Assembly (NCBI GenBank): GCA_964589815.1
Contig: CAZPUR010000004.1
Location: forward strand, 1 to 58,950
Source: an uncultured Pseudomonadales bacterium
GTDB lineage: Bacteria > Patescibacteriota > Microgenomatia > UBA1400
DNA: 58,950 nt
Reading direction: 5' to 3'
The notes under the pieces are model-generated. The model saw nothing but the letters and a program-made list of their open reading frames with translations, did not search any database and was not told the DNA's origin. Position 1 is the first letter of the stretch; every line of letters starts with the position of its first letter. The translations under genes were made by a program, and so were the position numbers. Positions 14,593-56,713 of this stretch are shown one piece after another.

Positions 14593-16550
14593 AAGGTTTA
14601 CAAAAGATTAAGGTAGGTGAGGAAAAAGAGTCTGTCCAAGACGAATCGGCGCCGGCGGTAAAAAAATCTAAATTGGGCAAGCGCATTTTAATTTTTCCCC
14701 TCGTTTTATTTTCTTTACTGGTTTTAATTGCTCTGCCTGGTTTCCTTTTGGCCCGACCCTTAATTAATTCAGTTCAAAAAACTTATAACTTAGCCCAGGA
14801 AGCATATCAGGCAGGAAAAAGTCAGGATTTGGTGACCACGGAGGTAAAACTAAAAGAAACCCAAGATGCCCTTCAAGAGACTCGGCAAAAATATCAAAAA
14901 TTGGCTTGGCTTAAAGTTATTCCTTTTTTAAGAGCTTATTATAAAGACGGAGAATATGGTTTAAATGCGGTTGCCAATGGTTTGGAGGCAGGAAAAATTT
15001 TGGTAGAGGCAATTACTCCTTATGCTGATGTTTTGGGTTTTAAAGGGCAGGGAAGTTTTATGGGCGGAACAGCCGAAGACCGGATTGCCAAGATTGTTCA
15101 AACCTTAGATAAAGTGACGCCGAAATTAGACGAGGTATCCGCCAAATTAAAACTAGTTGAGGAAGATGTAGAAAAGATTAACCCCCAGCGTTATCCTGAG
15201 GAAGTTAAAGGTAAGAAAATCAGGGGAAGAATAGAAAAACTCAAAACCACGATTAAAGAAATAACCTTAGGCATTGACGAAGCTCGGCCCATTATTAAGG
15301 TTTTGCCCCAAATTTTAGGCTACCCTGATTCTAAAGATTACCTGGTAATTTTTCAAAATGACGGCGAACTAAGAGCGACGGGTGGATTTATGACCGCTTT
15401 TTCCGTTTTACATTTAGAATCAGGCAAGGTCAAACCGGAAAAGAGCGACGACATTTATTCGTTGGATAAAAAGCTTAAGAGCCATTTGAAGCCGCCGGAG
15501 CCAATTGAAAAATACCTTTTCAGCACCGAATATAGCGCCAAGCTGGTGCCTTATTTCTATTTGAGGGATATGAATTTTTCTCCTGATTTTAAAGTTTCCA
15601 TGGAAACTTTTAAGACTTATTATGATAAAGTTCCGGGTGAATATGAAGTTGACGGTATTATTACGGTTGACACTTATGTTTTAAGAGATTTAGTTACCAT
15701 TTTGGGCCCGGTTGATGTGCCCGGTTACGGCACTTTTACCATAGAACCAGATGAACGCTGCCATAACATCCCTAATATTATTTGTGAGCTGGAATACATT
15801 GTCGATGAGCCTTTACCGACTCAATCAGGCAACCGGAAGCAGACTATTTTGGGGCCAATGATGCAGCAAATTTTGCTTAAGGCGATGGGTAGCCCTAAAA
15901 ATTTATGGCCTCAGCTCTTTACTACCGGCCTGAGATTGGTAAAAGAAAAACACGTTTTATTTTATTTAACCAATGGAGAGATTCAACAAGCGGTTGAGGC
16001 TTTTAATGCGGCCGGCAGGATTAAAGATTTCGAGGGCGACTATCTCCATATTAATGATTCCAATTTTGGAGGGGCTAAGGCCAACATGTTTACTAAACAA
16101 TCAGTGGAACAGGAGATTGAGATTGCCGAGTCAGGCAGAGTGACTAAAACTTTGACGATTGTTTACGAAAATCCGGAACCGATGGATGATTGCTATTTGG
16201 AAAGAAAAGGCGGTTTATGCTTAAACAGCATTCTTCGTAATTATTTTAGAATTTATGTCCCTCAGGGCTCCAAACTAATAGAAGCTTTGGGTTCAGAGGA
16301 AGAGGTAAAGACGCAGGAAGAGTTGGGTAAAACTTATTTTGATGGTTTCTTGACTGTCCGCGGTGAAGGCGGCCGGGCAAAATTGGTGATTAAATATGAA
16401 TTGCCTTTTACGGTTAATCCGGATGATAATTTTAAACTCTTGATCCAAAAGCAGCCAGGCACTTTAGGACATAAATACAAAGTTATTTTTGGCGAACAGG
16501 TTGAAGAGTTTGACCTTAGAACCGATCGAGAGTTTGTATTTGACTTTTAG
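14586..16550 (+). CDS. DUF4012-like membrane-anchored protein
   Basis: N-terminal TM; FQNDGELRATGGF, RDMNFSPDF, INDSNFGGAKAN, KQPGT. Confidence 0.8.
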   Translation: MVEGLQKIKVGEEKESVQDESAPAVKKSKLGKRILIFPLVLFSLLVLIALPGFLLARPLINSVQKTYNLAQEAYQAGKSQDLVTTEVKLKETQDALQETRQKYQKLAWLKVIPFLRAYYKDGEYGLNAVANGLEAGKILVEAITPYADVLGFKGQGSFMGGTAEDRIAKIVQTLDKVTPKLDEVSAKLKLVEEDVEKINPQRYPEEVKGKKIRGRIEKLKTTIKEITLGIDEARPIIKVLPQILGYPDSKDYLVIFQNDGELRATGGFMTAFSVLHLESGKVKPEKSDDIYSLDKKLKSHLKPPEPIEKYLFSTEYSAKLVPYFYLRDMNFSPDFKVSMETFKTYYDKVPGEYEVDGIITVDTYVLRDLVTILGPVDVPGYGTFTIEPDERCHNIPNIICELEYIVDEPLPTQSGNRKQTILGPMMQQILLKAMGSPKNLWPQLFTTGLRLVKEKHVLFYLTNGEIQQAVEAFNAAGRIKDFEGDYLHINDSNFGGAKANMFTKQSVEQEIEIAESGRVTKTLTIVYENPEPMDDCYLERKGGLCLNSILRNYFRIYVPQGSKLIEALGSEEEVKTQEELGKTYFDGFLTVRGEGGRAKLVIKYELPFTVNPDDNFKLLIQKQPGTLGHKYKVIFGEQVEEFDLRTDREFVFDF

Positions 16551-16553
16551 TCA

Positions 16554-16658
16554 GGAAACGTCATTCCTGAAATTAATTCAGGACAGGCTCCGAATCCTGA
16601 TATTCATCAGGACAAGCCTTATTGAAGGAAACGTCATCCTGAACTTGTTTCAGGATCT
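16554..16658. repeat. Cluster of three REP-like hairpins
   Basis: tcctgaa-attaa-ttcagga; tcctga-tattca-tcagga; gtcatcctgaacttgtttcaggatct; ggaaacgtcat repeated at 16554 and 16627. Confidence 0.85.
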
Positions 16659-16947
16659 ATATAATCTCCCCATATAAGTCTTTAAATCGAGGATTTTTTA
16701 ATTTAATAAGATTTAATTTCCATTGGCGATGCCAATTTTTTAATTGTTTTTCTCTTCGTATAGCTTCTTCAATTGATTCAAAACATTCATAATAGAGTAA
16801 CTTTGTTAGTTTATATTTTTGGCTAAAACCTTTAACTAAATGTTGTTTATGCTGGTAAACTCTTTTGATTAAATTAGAAGTTACTCCAATGTATATTGTA
16901 GGCCTATTATTACCAATAAAGTAAACATATCCTTTGTCTTTTGACAT
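16657..16947 (-). CDS. Small GIY-YIG nuclease family protein
   Basis: GYVYFI..IYIGVT..KRVYQH..YYE..AIRREKQLKNWHRQWK. Confidence 0.93.
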   Translation of the reverse strand: MSKDKGYVYFIGNNRPTIYIGVTSNLIKRVYQHKQHLVKGFSQKYKLTKLLYYECFESIEEAIRREKQLKNWHRQWKLNLIKLKNPRFKDLYGEII

Positions 16948-16968
16948 TAATTAAGTATACTTAATTAA
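16947..16968. promoter_or_regulatory. Perfect 22-bp palindrome at the GIY-YIG start codon
   Basis: ttaattaagtatacttaattaa, with tatact on both strands. Confidence 0.55.
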
Positions 16969-16997
16969 AATGTTGAAATAAATTAGATGCTGAAATG

Positions 16998-17023
16998 AGA
17001 TTCTGAAATAAATTCAGAATGAC
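16998..17023 (-). repeat. REP-like hairpin, inverted relative to the 16633 copy
   Basis: agattctgaaataaattcagaatgac; reverse complement gtcattctgaatttatttcagaatct matches 16633-16658. Confidence 0.85.
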
Positions 17024-17029
17024 GAGGAT

Positions 17030-17575
17030 ATGAAAACCTACAAAACAGAAGCTTTCGTGATTAAAAGAATCAATTTTGGTGAGGCGGATAAAATTCTAAC
17101 AGTTTATTCTAAGCATTATGGCAAGATTCGCTGTTTGGCTAAAGGAGTGAGAAAATTAACTTCCCGTAAAGCCGGTGCCCTAGATCTTTTTAACCAAGTA
17201 GTTATTTTTGTCGCCAAAGGCAAAAATTTGGACTTAATCACCGAGGCTAGGATTTTGAGATCTTTTAGCAGCTTTAAAAAAGACCTGAAAAAAGTGGCTT
17301 TGGCTTATAAATTTGTGGAATTAGTCGACCGCTTAAATGCTGAAAATCAAGCCAATCATTCAGTCTACCAACTTTTACTTGATTCTTTAAGAAAACTGAC
17401 TCGTTCCCAGGTGAACTTAAGTCAACTCTCTTTAGATTTTAAAAAAGATCTTTTGCAGTGGACAGGTTTTGGCTTGCCTGATGAGATTAGCAACCGGAGT
17501 TTAAACGAAGCTTTAGAAAAAATTATCGAAAAAAAGATTAACTCTCATTCTCTCTTGAAAAAGGTGATGGATTGA
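17030..17575 (+). CDS. recO: DNA repair protein RecO (short form)
   Basis: FGEADKILTVYSKHYGKI..AKGVRK..SRK..LDLFN. Confidence 0.9.
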   Translation: MKTYKTEAFVIKRINFGEADKILTVYSKHYGKIRCLAKGVRKLTSRKAGALDLFNQVVIFVAKGKNLDLITEARILRSFSSFKKDLKKVALAYKFVELVDRLNAENQANHSVYQLLLDSLRKLTRSQVNLSQLSLDFKKDLLQWTGFGLPDEISNRSLNEALEKIIEKKINSHSLLKKVMD

Positions 17576-41599: not shown

Positions 41600-43003
41600 A
41601 TGCCAAACTTATTATTAACAGATTTAAGAAATAAATATCCAGAGTTTGTTTATCAGGACTTTTCTTATAAAAAAGTCGGTTCTGATTTAAGACTTGTTTT
41701 TGATTTTTTTATAAGACCAGATATTTATTTTAAACCTCAAATTATTATTAAAAATATTAAATTTTCTCAGTTAAACTCTCTGAATAAACAAACTCTTGAT
41801 AATTTTGTGTTTCATTTAGGCTTAATAGAGATGCTAAGTTATTGGAAGGTCACTTGTTCGCCAATAATAAGAATTGGGGCAGGTAGCCTTAGTCTTGCAC
41901 AGATTGACCGGTGGAAAGATTTATTTATTAAAGGTATGGGCCAGTTTTTTTATACCAATAAAATAGATTTTACTTCACCAGATTTTCTAGAGATTATTGC
42001 TGACAAAAACAAGAAATTCCCTATTTCTAAGAAGAAAGTTAATCAAAAAAATTTGTTAGCTTTGGTTGGCGGAGGCAAAGATTCGGCAGTAATGCTGGAA
42101 CTGTTAAAAAAAACCAAAAAAGAGATTTTCTGCTTCGCTGTTAATCCCAATAAAGCCATAAGGCAGGTTATTAAATTATCGGGAGTTAAGAATGAAGTAA
42201 TAGTAGAAAGAAGGATAGATCAGAAACTTTTAGAGTTAAATAAAAAAGGTTTTTTAAATGGCCATACTCCTTTTTCTGCTCTTTTGGCGTTTTTATCTGC
42301 TTTTTGTGGTTTGCTTTTTGATTGTGGCCAAATAGTAGTTGCCCAAGAGAGGAGTTCAAATGAGGGGAATGTTAATTATTTAGGCTATGAGGTTAACCAT
42401 CAGTACTCAAAGAGCTTTGAATTTGAAAATAAATTTAGAAGCTATTTAAATAAGTATTTAATTGCCAATTTAAATTATTTTAGTTTCTTAAGACCTTTAT
42501 ATGAGTTGCAGATTGGCAAAATTTTTTCTTCATATCCTCAATATTTTTCTATTTTTAAAAGTTGTAATGTTGGTCAGAAAACCAATACTTGGTGCACCCA
42601 GTGTCCGAAATGTTTATTTGTTTTTATTGCTCTTTATCCTTTTTTAAAATACGAAGATTTAGTGGAGATTTTTGGCCAGGATTTGTTTAAAAAAAGATCT
42701 CTTTTACCGGTTTTAAAAGGTTTGATTGGTTTAAAAGAATGCAAGCCATTTGAATGCGTAGGCACAAGAGAAGAAACTTTGGTGGCTTTGAAATTATGTT
42801 ATAAAAAAGCAGAGGAAAAAGAAGCGGAATTACCTTGTCTGCTACAGTTTTTTAAAAAGCAGATTACTATAACTAAGCCACGATCGTGGATGAGTTATAG
42901 TAAAATAAGAAGCGTGGAAGGAAACATTTTGAAAGGTTGGAATAAAGATAATAATTTACCTTTGGATTTTAAAAAGATTTTAAAAAAGGAATTAAATGAT
43001 TAA
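41600..43003 (+). CDS. murL: UDP-MurNAc-L-Ala-L-Glu epimerase MurL
   Basis: GGGKDS, NGHTPFS, SSNEG, NHQYSKS, YFSFLRP..ELQI, SCN, WC..CPKC, KPFECVG; directly upstream of murD. Confidence 0.8.
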   Translation: MPNLLLTDLRNKYPEFVYQDFSYKKVGSDLRLVFDFFIRPDIYFKPQIIIKNIKFSQLNSLNKQTLDNFVFHLGLIEMLSYWKVTCSPIIRIGAGSLSLAQIDRWKDLFIKGMGQFFYTNKIDFTSPDFLEIIADKNKKFPISKKKVNQKNLLALVGGGKDSAVMLELLKKTKKEIFCFAVNPNKAIRQVIKLSGVKNEVIVERRIDQKLLELNKKGFLNGHTPFSALLAFLSAFCGLLFDCGQIVVAQERSSNEGNVNYLGYEVNHQYSKSFEFENKFRSYLNKYLIANLNYFSFLRPLYELQIGKIFSSYPQYFSIFKSCNVGQKTNTWCTQCPKCLFVFIALYPFLKYEDLVEIFGQDLFKKRSLLPVLKGLIGLKECKPFECVGTREETLVALKLCYKKAEEKEAELPCLLQFFKKQITITKPRSWMSYSKIRSVEGNILKGWNKDNNLPLDFKKILKKELND

Positions 43004-44387
43004 AGCTTGGGAAGATAAAAAAATATTGATTCTCGGTTTTGGCCGTGAAGGTTTAAGCAGTTTGGAGTTTTTACGCCAAAAATTTCATGATAAAGAAATT
43101 GGTGTAGCTGATCAATTAAAATTTAGAGATTTAAACTATAAACTTAAAGAAAAAATTAAAAAATTTTCTCCCCTGAAATTGCATTTAGGAAAAGACTATT
43201 TAAAAGCAATTGATAAATATAACATTATTATTAGATCGCCAGGTTTGTCTATGGCTTCGCCAGCGCTAATTAGAGCCAAAGAGAAAGGTAAAATAATTAG
43301 CTCGCAGACAAAAATCTTCTTTGATCTTTGCCCGGGAATAATTATTGGAGTGACAGGGACAAAGGGCAAGAGCACAACATCTTCTTTAATCTTTGCAATT
43401 TTAAAGGCAGCCAGGAAAAAGGTTAAGTTAATTGGTAATATTGGTAAACCAGCTCTAACTTTTTTAAACGGAAATGGTAAAGATACTATCTTTATTTTTG
43501 AGCTTTCTTCTCATCAGTTAGTTGATTTAAAAAAAAGTCCTCACACTGCAGTTTTATTAAACATTGTCCCCGAGCATTTGGATTATTATAAAAATTTTAA
43601 AGAATATCTGAATGCTAAAAAGAGCTTTATCCTTTATCAAGACAAAGATGATTATTTAATTTACAATGCTTCTTTTCCTGTTACTAGAAAATTATCAAAA
43701 ATAAGCAAAGCTAAAAAAATTCCTTTTTATATTGATAGACAAAAATGCCCCGGTTGTTTTCCAGATGGAGGTAAGCTTGTTTATTGTTATTCTCAATCAG
43801 GCAAGGAAGAAATAATCAAAATAAAAGATATTCCCTTAAGAGGAAAATTTAATTTACAAAACGTAATGCCGGCGATTATCGTGGCTAAAATATTTAATCT
43901 TGATAATCAAACCATTGCTAGAGCGATTAAAAAATTTAAACCTTTACCTCATCGTTTAGAATTAGTCGGTATTTTTAAAGGCATTACTTTTTACAATGAC
44001 TCTTTAGCTACCAACCCTAATGCTACCATAGCCGCCATTGATACCTTTAAAAATAAAATTGGGACGATTTTTTTAGGTGGCCATGAGAGAAATTTAGACT
44101 TTAGCGCTCTGGCCAAACAAATTTTGCTTTATAAAATCAAAAATATTATTCTTTTTCCGGTCAATGGAAAAAGAATTTGGCAAGAGATTCAAAAAAGAGC
44201 AGGAACATTTTCTCCTCAACACTTTTTTGCTAAAAACATGAAAGAAGCAGTTAAATTAGCTTATCAACATACGCCTCAAGGGAAAATTTGTTTACTTTCT
44301 TGTGCGGCTCCAAGTTTTGGTTTGTTTAAGGACTATAAGGATAGGGGAGACCAGTTTAAAAAGTGGGTAAAGAAGTTAAGATCCTGA
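42996..44387 (+). CDS. murD: MurD-family glutamate ligase (probably MurD2)
   Basis: GFGREG, RSPG, GVTGTKGKSTT, ELSSHQL, EHLDY, HRLE, NDSLATN. Confidence 0.9.
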   Translation: MIKAWEDKKILILGFGREGLSSLEFLRQKFHDKEIGVADQLKFRDLNYKLKEKIKKFSPLKLHLGKDYLKAIDKYNIIIRSPGLSMASPALIRAKEKGKIISSQTKIFFDLCPGIIIGVTGTKGKSTTSSLIFAILKAARKKVKLIGNIGKPALTFLNGNGKDTIFIFELSSHQLVDLKKSPHTAVLLNIVPEHLDYYKNFKEYLNAKKSFILYQDKDDYLIYNASFPVTRKLSKISKAKKIPFYIDRQKCPGCFPDGGKLVYCYSQSGKEEIIKIKDIPLRGKFNLQNVMPAIIVAKIFNLDNQTIARAIKKFKPLPHRLELVGIFKGITFYNDSLATNPNATIAAIDTFKNKIGTIFLGGHERNLDFSALAKQILLYKIKNIILFPVNGKRIWQEIQKRAGTFSPQHFFAKNMKEAVKLAYQHTPQGKICLLSCAAPSFGLFKDYKDRGDQFKKWVKKLRS

Positions 44388-44404
44388 AATAAATTCAGGA
44401 TGAC
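44379..44404 (-). repeat. REP-like hairpin containing the murD stop codon
   Basis: agatcctgaaataaattcaggatgac, near-identical to 16998-17023. Confidence 0.85.
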
Positions 44405-44409
44405 AAAAT

Positions 44410-45510
44410 ATGGCTAAAAGAGATTGGGGAAATCATCGTAAAAAATCCTCATCAAAAAAGTTAGATTGGGCCTTGTTTGTTTTAGTCGGGGCTTTGACTT
44501 TATTTGGGGTTTTAATGGTCTACAATGCTTCGGTGGTGGAAGCGGATAGGGTTTTTAATGATAAATATTATTATTTAAAAAATCAAGCCTTATGGGCGGG
44601 CATCGGTTTGCTGCTGATGTTGGTTTTTTCCCGGATTAACTTTAATCTTATTAAAAAAATGGCCGCTCCCCTGTTTGTGATTAATTTAATTCTGCTAGTT
44701 TTAGTTTTAATTCCGGGAGTGGGGACGCAAATTAAAGGCGCTAGACGTTGGCTTAACTTTGGTTTTTTTATTTTACAGCCCTCAGAACTGATAAAGTTGA
44801 CCATGGTTTGCTATCTAGCTTCTTGGTTGGAGAAAAAAAGAAGAATCTGGCAATTCTTAAGCCTGATTGGTTTTATCTCTCTTTTGGTCCTGCTGGAGCC
44901 GGACTTAGGCACTTTGGCCGTAATTGTGGTTAATGCTTTTTTAATTTATTTCTTGTCCGGCGCTTCAGTTTTGAAATTGATTCCAATGGTGGTTTTAGTT
45001 TTTCTTGGAGGGCTTTTGGCGATTCTGAGCTCTTCTTATCGTCGGGATAGGCTATTAACTTTCCTCAATCCTACCCGCGACCCTTTAGGCAGTTCTTACC
45101 ATATTACCCAGGTTTTAATTGCCTTAAGTTCGGGAGGGATTTTTGGTTTGGGCTTGGGACAATCAAGGCAGAAATACGCCTATTTACCTGAGGTAACCAC
45201 TGATTCTATTTTTGCCATTATTGCCGAAGAGCTGGGTTTTATCGGCGCCGGGGTGGTGATTCTTATTTTTTTAGCCATTTTATTAAAAGGTTTTTTAATT
45301 GTTAAAAAAGCTGATCCTGGTTTCGCTCAGCTTTTATCCGGCGGCATTATTGGTTGGATTGGAATTCAAACTTTAATTAATTTGGCGGCGATGGTGGCTT
45401 TAGTGCCTTTGACAGGTTTACCCTTGCCTTTTATTTCTTACGGCGGGTCATCTTTAATTGTAACTTTAGTGGGAGTTGGGATATTATTAAATATTAGTAA
45501 AGATACATAA
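44410..45510 (+). CDS. ftsW: SEDS protein FtsW
   Basis: GARRW, QPSELIK, EPDLGT, YLPEVTTDSIFA, LPFISYGGSS; upstream of murG. Confidence 0.93.
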   Translation: MAKRDWGNHRKKSSSKKLDWALFVLVGALTLFGVLMVYNASVVEADRVFNDKYYYLKNQALWAGIGLLLMLVFSRINFNLIKKMAAPLFVINLILLVLVLIPGVGTQIKGARRWLNFGFFILQPSELIKLTMVCYLASWLEKKRRIWQFLSLIGFISLLVLLEPDLGTLAVIVVNAFLIYFLSGASVLKLIPMVVLVFLGGLLAILSSSYRRDRLLTFLNPTRDPLGSSYHITQVLIALSSGGIFGLGLGQSRQKYAYLPEVTTDSIFAIIAEELGFIGAGVVILIFLAILLKGFLIVKKADPGFAQLLSGGIIGWIGIQTLINLAAMVALVPLTGLPLPFISYGGSSLIVTLVGVGILLNISKDT

Positions 45511-56641: not shown

Positions 56642-56713
56642 GGGCTCGTAGCTCAGTGGTAGAGCGTTCCGTTCACATCGGAGAGGTCATAGGTTCAATC
56701 CCTATCGAGCCCA
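56642..56713 (+). tRNA. tRNA-Val(CAC)
   Basis: Acceptor gggctcg/cgagccc, D-arm gctc/gagc, anticodon ttccg-ttCACat-cggag, T-arm atagg-ttcaatc-cctat; CCA not encoded. Confidence 0.95.

Follow-up and report, generated by a model that had tools for sequence, protein, structure and literature searches.

A putative Ssn nuclease gene and its inverted SRM hairpins, probably acquired by insertion between DUF4012 and recO in a genome of the candidate phyla radiation

The DNA analysed here, hereafter the window, is a stretch of 58,950 nucleotides (about 59 kb; contig CAZPUR010000004.1) from a Microgenomates/Beckwithbacteria-like member of the candidate phyla radiation (CPR). A DUF4012 gene ends with a stop codon at 16550 and recO begins with an ATG at 17030, and the DNA between them holds a small reverse-strand gene for a GIY-YIG nuclease, here called ssn, with hairpin repeats placed in inverted orientation around it (Table 1). 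Judging from sequence comparisons, we consider it very probable that this cassette consists of an Ssn nuclease and its SRM target hairpins, that it acts on single-stranded DNA (ssDNA) as its relatives do, and that it was acquired by insertion. An earlier note on the window had described a 96-aa GIY-YIG gene with its Arg, His and Glu motifs intact, bracketing inverted hairpins of which one overlaps the stop codon and the other touches the recO ribosome-binding site (RBS), two further hairpins upstream and a solo copy elsewhere, and all of these elements were found at or within a few bases of where it had placed them.

Table 1. Features of the ssn cassette and the solo hairpin. CM R1 is the covariance model described in the text; ORF, open reading frame; a dot means that no strand is assigned.
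Feature	Coordinates	Strand	Details
Whole cassette, 479 nt	16551..17029	.	absent at the DUF4012-recO junction of relatives
Degenerate outer SRM	16553..16585, hairpin 16565-16583	+	7-bp TCCTGAA/TTCAGGA; fold -5.7 kcal/mol
Third hairpin, TCCTGAT-ATTC-ATCAGGA	16586..16618, hairpin 16595-16612	.	-7.0 kcal/mol, z=-3.2
SRM at 3' end of ssn	16624..16662	+ (reverse relative to gene)	core GTCATCCTGAACTTGTTTCAGGATC at 16633-16657; CM R1 40.7 bits, E=9.3e-9
ssn, 96-aa single-domain GIY-YIG nuclease	16657..16947, stop codon included	-	ORF, Pfam, BLASTP
SRM 5' of ssn	16994..17032	- (forward on the gene's strand)	core GTCATTCTGAATTTATTTCAGAATC at 17023..16999; CM R1 39.7 bits, E=1.8e-8
Solo SRM, 22-nt gap between murD-like gene and ftsW	44375..44413	-	core GTCATCCTGAATTTATTTCAGGATC at 44404..44380; CM R1 36.9 bits, E=9.8e-8

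The two bracketing hairpins form an inverted pair (I1) of 27 nt each, 85% complementary. The left arm, 16632-16658 (CGTCATCCTGAACTTGTTTCAGGATCT), shares 1-2 nt with the ssn stop codon, and the right arm, 16998-17024 (AGATTCTGAAATAAATTCAGAATGACG), ends 5 nt before the recO ATG, the SRM on this side abutting both the RBS and the start codon. Each hairpin is built from GTC, an 8-bp stem, a 5-nt loop and C, in inverted orientation around ssn. These two and the solo copy are the three good copies of the window: they read GTC-ATYCTGAA-loop-TTCAGRAT-C, all with the 5' GTC and the 3' C, and as ssDNA all adopt the 8-bp hairpin fold expected of them (z = -3.0 to -4.5), the recO-side SRM at -5.4 kcal/mol (z=-4.5) and the one at the 3' end of ssn at -6.1 kcal/mol. 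The solo copy, at 44380-44404 (-), has 2 mismatches to the 25-mer, and matches with <=3 mismatches numbered 0 in 100 shuffles. It has the same loop as the recO-side SRM and one compensatory stem-pair difference from it, T-A vs C-G, at the pair that is the most variable of the hairpin family. The SRMs of the window are located at gene junctions, not within genes.

Both of the further hairpins upstream of the pair are degenerate. The outer one carries a 12-nt prefix (AGGAAACGTCAT) identical to 16626-16637 (repeat family D5), has one additional T, lacks the 3' ATC and gave only partial matches to CM R1 (E 0.3-0.5), while the third hairpin has a short outer stem without GTC...C flanks and was missed by the model. 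The two look like decayed SRM copies, and the hairpin at 16595-16612 probably is a decayed SRM.

A first detector (7-bp stem, 1 mismatch) gave 4 matches in the window vs 3.15 in shuffles; as this was no better than shuffles, it was tightened to perfect 8-bp stems, and with this strict motif (GTC, perfect 8-bp stem, C) the window gave 3 matches vs 0.025 per dinucleotide shuffle. Since the published patterns had no match in the window (0 for the NTS pattern of the Neisseria repeats), a structural detector and a covariance model (CM R1) were used. All hairpins used to build the model came from the flanks of homologues in other genomes (an 80-locus sample, other phyla; see below). With no window sequence in it, CM R1 picks exactly the three SRMs of the window (E 9e-9 to 1e-7), the next match having E=0.06. 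A scan of the whole window against Rfam at the gathering threshold found nothing at the hairpins; its sole match was one tRNA gene at 56642-56713 (+).

Enzymes of the Ssn family are site-specific ssDNA endonucleases whose genes lie between their hairpin targets, the NTS or SRM (Chenal et al., Nat Commun 2025, PMC11893778). They consist of a single GIY-YIG domain of about 94 aa, CDD family cd10448, and inverted hairpin repeats flank their genes, the repeat being named NTS in Neisseria (CGTCATTCCCGCGMAVGCGGGAATCYRG) and SRM in general (PMC11893778). For the purified enzymes of N. meningitidis, N. elongata, N. wadsworthii and Wolbachia pipientis, binding to the hairpin requires ssDNA and the cut falls a few nucleotides upstream, with double-stranded DNA (dsDNA), RNA and the reverse strand left uncut; the three nucleotides 5' of the palindrome weigh most in cleavage, and the C right after it in binding (PMC11893778). 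The key nucleotides of the N. meningitidis hairpin, GTC 5' of the palindrome and C directly 3', are present in the three good copies of the window. Furthermore, SsnA/NTS modulates natural transformation in meningococci, and the authors considered that NTS-ssnA-NTS looks like an insertion sequence, compared it with IS200/IS605 and with repetitive extragenic palindromes (REP) and their mosaic elements (BIME), hypothesised that Ssn modules are mobile and proposed domestication (PMC11893778). Both the architecture and the IS200/IS605-REP analogy were hence published in 2025 and the idea is not new; CPR are absent from the main text of that paper (PMC11893778).

Pfam GIY-YIG (PF01541) covers residues 5-79 of the window protein (E=1.5e-15) and Pfam gives no second domain, the length falling in the Ssn range of ~94-100 aa. 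An alignment of 32 homologues, the window protein included, shows no variation at Y9, Y19, R29, E66 and N85 and almost none at H33. With the GIY/YIG tyrosines, the arginine and the glutamate invariant, the catalytic set is therefore intact. A tblastn search of PLSDB (7.3-Gb database) matched the protein to an N. gonorrhoeae chromosome (E=2e-23), the match being a 94-aa ORF embedded among NTS repeats. Two PLSDB records, NZ_CP119140.1 (L088) and NZ_CP119142.1, have plasmid labels, yet are 2.17-Mb N. gonorrhoeae chromosomes. The gonococcal 94-aa orthologue of SsnA served as a proxy for NMV_0044 in the homology test, and BLASTP against it gave 49% identity over 90 aa (E=1e-33), far below the E<1e-10 to SsnA by which homologues were defined in the published study (PMC11893778). 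The nearest solved structure is UPF0213 protein BH0048 (PDB 1zg2), at E=0.0027 vs 1e-33 for SsnA. No NCBIfam model matches the 96-aa protein, its sole PADLOC match is marginal (PDC-S14, 25 residues, E=0.0022, 15 bits), and PHROGs gave a weak and uninformative homing-endonuclease match only (E=3e-4).

Homologues at E<=1e-3 numbered 1408, many of them in Microgenomates and other CPR groups. From a scan with one genome per species we compared 80 homologue loci (proteins 45-64% identical) in Saccharibacteria, other Patescibacteria, Alpha-, Gamma- and Deltaproteobacteria, Ignavibacteria, Bacteroidota, Melainabacteria, Chloroflexota, Planctomycetes and others. A GTC-stem-loop-stem-C hairpin lies <=150 nt from the gene in 70 of the 80 loci, forward upstream in 56, reverse downstream in 53 and both in 45, so the idea in the earlier note that homologues might routinely be flanked by the motif is borne out. 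Such hairpins number 5.2 per kb in the flanks and 0.17 per kb in the remainder of these loci. Because the detector presupposes GTC/C flanks, the test was repeated without a flank requirement: among the best perfect upstream hairpins GTC...C stood forward in 48 of 63 and reverse in 8, and the best downstream hairpins were reversed in 38 of 65 and forward in 11. Orientation and association with the gene are thus maintained across the family.

The stems are diverse (ATTCCCGC in 30 hairpins, ATGCTGAA in 16, ATCCTGAA in 14, ACCCTGAA in 7, plus others). Across 94 aligned flanking hairpins, compensatory double changes occur at 7 of the 8 stem pairs; 99.7% of cells are paired, a figure that is circular because the sequences were selected for pairing, whereas the variety of pair types is free of this circularity. 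Homologues in an alphaproteobacterium (L003) and in a Saccharibacteria genome (L030) have the exact 25-mer of the window (GTCATCCTGAACTTGTTTCAGGATC copy) in their flanks too. On the 3.3-kb gonococcal ssnA locus CM R1 found 16 NTS copies at 34-40 bits, against 37-41 bits for the SRMs of the window, and it found no SRM in ~35 kb of loci from the window's relatives.

The published SRM pattern, HGTCWYN(0-2)YYVSBRHN(0-5)WNVSBRGN(0-2)RNCYNB, was derived from 29 genomes (PMC11893778) and matches only 26 of the 80 homologue loci. Hairpins of the CTGAA type, roughly 40% of the flanking hairpins in this sample, are missed because the pattern demands V-S-B where the stem has T-G-A; published counts of SRM association are therefore probably underestimates, and we treat the pattern as an over-narrow search heuristic and not as a defining feature of SRM. 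Identity to gonococcal SsnA is 0.60 for proteins with NTS-type stems vs 0.485 for those with CTGAA-type stems (Mann-Whitney p=1e-6, phylogeny ignored), which suggests that Ssn protein and hairpin type co-vary.

Upstream and downstream stem types often differ within one locus (L004, L012, L017, L057, L031 and others; for example ATCCCGAA upstream and ATGCTGAA downstream), and either one enzyme tolerates several stems or cassettes recombine. Several homologue ORFs (P0047, P0058, P0071 and P0074 in alignment A1) run on into the adjoining hairpin, and the ends of such proteins, with tails DPETSSG and ILKQVQDD or heads MLNLIQH, are translated hairpin. These ends are recurrent annotation artefacts and a protein-level fingerprint of the CTGAA-type hairpin, and they were the first sign of a general association between gene and hairpin. 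On IMGVR_UViG_3300045988_146177 (L093), positions 1501-1971 hold a 64% identical homologue with three strong SRM matches just downstream, hence the module can occasionally reside on predicted viral or proviral DNA.

In three syntenic relatives (L083, L085, L087) only 3-4 nt separate the DUF4012 stop from the recO start. Identity to the closest RecO relatives is 76%, 61% and 60%, and the shared gene order runs glycosyltransferase, NTP-transferase, Bac_transf, DUF4012, RecO, GlyRS, and on. Given this clean junction in three relatives, 16551-17029 is extra DNA in this lineage; DUF4012 and recO are adjacent without the cassette, as the earlier note had thought worth checking, and the lineage is not fixed for the cassette. 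GC content is 29% in the cassette and 26% in the ssn ORF, against 37% for the window, which places the cassette in the lowest 3.3% of 479-nt windows. At the murD/ftsW junction, the solo SRM is missing in four relatives (L089, L090, L091 and L092; FtsW 86% identical in L089, then 72%, 71% and 65%), where murD and ftsW overlap or have an unrelated spacer between them. This agrees with the suggestion in the earlier note that solo copies are dispersed, and from the comparison the solo hairpin appears likewise to be an insertion. The murD-like ORF (42996..44387) has its TGA stop, 44385-44387, within the 5' arm of the solo hairpin, and the insertion therefore changed the last residues of that protein; ftsW starts 5 nt past the solo SRM.

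Both terminal SRMs point their GTC (cleavage) side outward, and the insertion limits 16551 and 17029 lie 2-5 nt from the predicted cut positions, which are no more than predictions, as cut positions vary among homologues. Contigs from SRR9706179 and SRR9707468 (L081, L082) are identical to the window and both end exactly at 16632, the C of CGTCAT at the outer SRM edge, which suggests a repeat- or polymorphism-induced branch of the assembly graph at the hairpin boundary. Two smaller features lie within the cassette. A 13-nt tandem pair (AAATTAGATGCTG / AAATGAGATTCTG, 16980-17005) just inside the recO-side SRM seems to be a relic of another half-hairpin (GATGCTGAAAT), like the partial arms in L011 and L022. 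A promoter-like TTGTCT-16-TATACT at 16934-16961 (+), a consensus match only, is directed at recO; promoter-like matches in this region are no commoner than in shuffles, and the hexamers, if functional, could replace the transcriptional/translational coupling with DUF4012 that the insertion broke.

By homology with the Neisseria and Wolbachia enzymes, the Ssn of the window would bind the folded hairpin only in ssDNA, reading the GTC just 5' and the C just 3' of the palindrome, and hydrolysis of the strand would follow a few nucleotides to the 5' side of the motif, with no cutting of dsDNA, RNA or the complementary strand; we infer this ssDNA-specific cleavage by the window protein from the literature. 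The predicted cuts extrapolate the N. meningitidis position, ~3 nt 5' of CGTCAT as read from oligo-truncation data, and would fall near 16628/16629 (+) and 17028/17027 (-), with a further one near 16555/16556 should the enzyme still recognise the degenerate outer copy. The module, comprising SRM, ssn, inverted SRM and the two decayed hairpins, would have reached this Beckwithbacteria-like CPR lineage by a 479-nt insertion placed exactly between the formerly abutting DUF4012 and recO genes, and the ~25-nt solo SRM would have inserted separately between murD and ftsW. That Ssn itself mobilised the cassette or the solo hairpins, and that it has a cellular role such as trimming ssDNA that enters the cell or arises in replication, as in Neisseria transformation, we infer only as unproven possibilities.

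Several points weigh against this account of the cassette as an inserted Ssn module. The characterised Ssn are Neisseria and Wolbachia enzymes, not of the CTGAA type and not from CPR, the published degenerate SRM pattern has 0 matches in the window, and there are only 3 good SRMs in 59 kb, with no massive expansion as in Neisseria. Two scans of metagenome contigs found neither a same-strain empty site nor alternative 3' junctions. We know of no Ssn for which transposition has been demonstrated; GIY-YIG enzymes hydrolyse DNA, form no covalent intermediate and cannot religate. This chemistry and the single copy of ssn in the window also tell against the cassette being an autonomous element moved by Ssn as a hairpin-specific ssDNA 'transposase' or SRM-homing nuclease, with solo SRMs as non-autonomous derivatives resembling miniature inverted-repeat transposable elements (MITEs), a scenario that we hold to be possible, if doubtful. 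In its favour stand the insertion between abutting genes and an independent solo insertion; the limits of the cassette lie close to the predicted cuts with the cleavage sides outward, homologues are scattered over very distant phyla, two independent assemblies break at the SRM edge 16632, and the authors raised the same hypothesis (PMC11893778). However, with no covalent intermediate a further activity would be needed for strand joining, the ends lie on opposite strands, which those of IS200/IS605 do not, and neither a target-site duplication nor an excision product was seen. Homologues are also rare on viruses (4 in IMG/VR; 0 in INPHARED by tblastn of 50,697 phage records), and of the 33 PLSDB records with a homologue all but one are typed as non-mobilizable, several being chromosome-sized. 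With no tblastn match in phage records and those 4 IMG/VR homologues only, a phage-borne origin was rejected as unsupported. The more specific proposal that SRM-ssn-SRM is genuinely mobile, its ends set by Ssn's own cleavage sites through opposite-strand nicks outside the outward-facing hairpins, we judge unlikely.

A domesticated host function, in which Ssn restricts or processes SRM-bearing ssDNA of transforming, conjugative or ssDNA-phage origin and the hairpins mark loci, is compatible with a mobile origin and does not exclude it. The modulation of natural transformation by SsnA/NTS in N. meningitidis (PMC11893778) and the position of the SRMs of the window at gene junctions are in its favour, but three SRMs in 59 kb are few, models of defence systems gave no meaningful match (PADLOC, PDC-S14 marginal), and gene and hairpins are missing at these sites in close relatives, the function being therefore dispensable; we would not expect it to be the explanation here. 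Presence and absence by themselves give no direction, and the comparison includes no cassette-bearing outgroup, hence the cassette could in principle be ancestral and have been precisely lost in the relatives. We regard this as distinctly improbable: three relatives at different distances all have the clean junction, the GC content departs from that of the window, the distribution of ssn is patchy and crosses phyla, and it is unparsimonious to assume that an ancestral cassette was precisely lost several times. Finally, hairpins at gene ends and beside start codons might be ordinary terminators or regulatory stems, next to an unrelated housekeeping GIY-YIG protein of the UPF0213/YhbQ kind, as the nearest solved structure would allow, or to a dsDNA homing endonuclease, as the weak PHROGs match would. 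No T-tracts follow the stems, however, and a terminator scan found only an unrelated site inside the ssn ORF; GTC...C flanks and gene-relative orientation are kept across phyla, BH0048 is remote in comparison with SsnA, and the protein has no DNA-binding domain. This combination is extremely improbable and essentially excluded.

The published Ssn/NTS system of Neisseria is the closest counterpart of the inserted Ssn module. Both have a ~95-aa single-domain GIY-YIG protein, a gene between inverted, oriented hairpins and solo copies elsewhere, and in NTS and window hairpins alike a palindromic stem closed by A-T stands between a 5' GTC and a 3' C, the same covariance model scoring both equally. 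They differ in the stem, which is ATCCTGAA/TTCAGGAT with a 5-nt loop in the window and ATTCCCGC/GCGGGAAT in the Neisseria NTS, in the host, here a CPR bacterium, and in copy number, a Neisseria genome having hundreds and the window 3 good ones in its 59 kb. The earlier note had likened the locus to REP-associated tyrosine transposases (RAYT) and their REPs, an analogy that holds for the architecture and for hairpin-specific ssDNA recognition and fails for covalent chemistry and same-strand ends. In RAYT/REP and IS200/IS605, as in the window, a nuclease gene is flanked by palindromic repeats recognised as ssDNA hairpins, and in both these systems and Ssn/SRM the cleavage is offset from the hairpin and solo repeats are dispersed between genes. 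Fold and chemistry are unrelated, a hydrolytic GIY-YIG domain in the window against HUH/Y1 enzymes with a covalent 5'-phosphotyrosine; the flanking hairpins lie on opposite strands in the window and on the same strand in IS200/IS605, and the window hairpins lack a GTAG tetranucleotide.

Neisseria dRS3, NIMEs and MITE-like palindromes resemble the window repeats as ~20-30-nt intergenic palindromes at gene junctions; dRS3 is the NTS core, whereas the repeats of the window are few and carry oriented GTC...C flanks beyond the bare palindrome. UPF0213 proteins (B. halodurans BH0048, PDB 1zg2; E. coli YhbQ) are likewise small stand-alone GIY-YIG proteins of ~100 aa, of remote similarity (E=0.003). 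They presumably belong to a CDD family other than that of Ssn, and we know of no association of theirs with flanking hairpins. Homing endonucleases of the I-TevI type share the GIY-YIG core and the selfish-element context, but they have separate DNA-binding domains, cut dsDNA and sit in introns or as free-standing phage genes, whereas the window protein is the bare catalytic domain.

Our results place Ssn modules in ultra-small CPR genomes, with a hairpin type that the published SRM pattern misses. The empty sites for the cassette and for the solo hairpin give direct comparative support for a mobility that the authors only hypothesised, and the protein and its hairpin are candidates for a new specificity pair among ssDNA-cutting tools. 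If the ends of the element were indeed set by Ssn, a bare GIY-YIG domain would be driving transposition or homing through ssDNA hairpins, solo SRMs would be MITE-like descendants of the element, and the window would be among the first documented insertion events, with an empty site in relatives and limits 2-5 nt from the predicted cuts.

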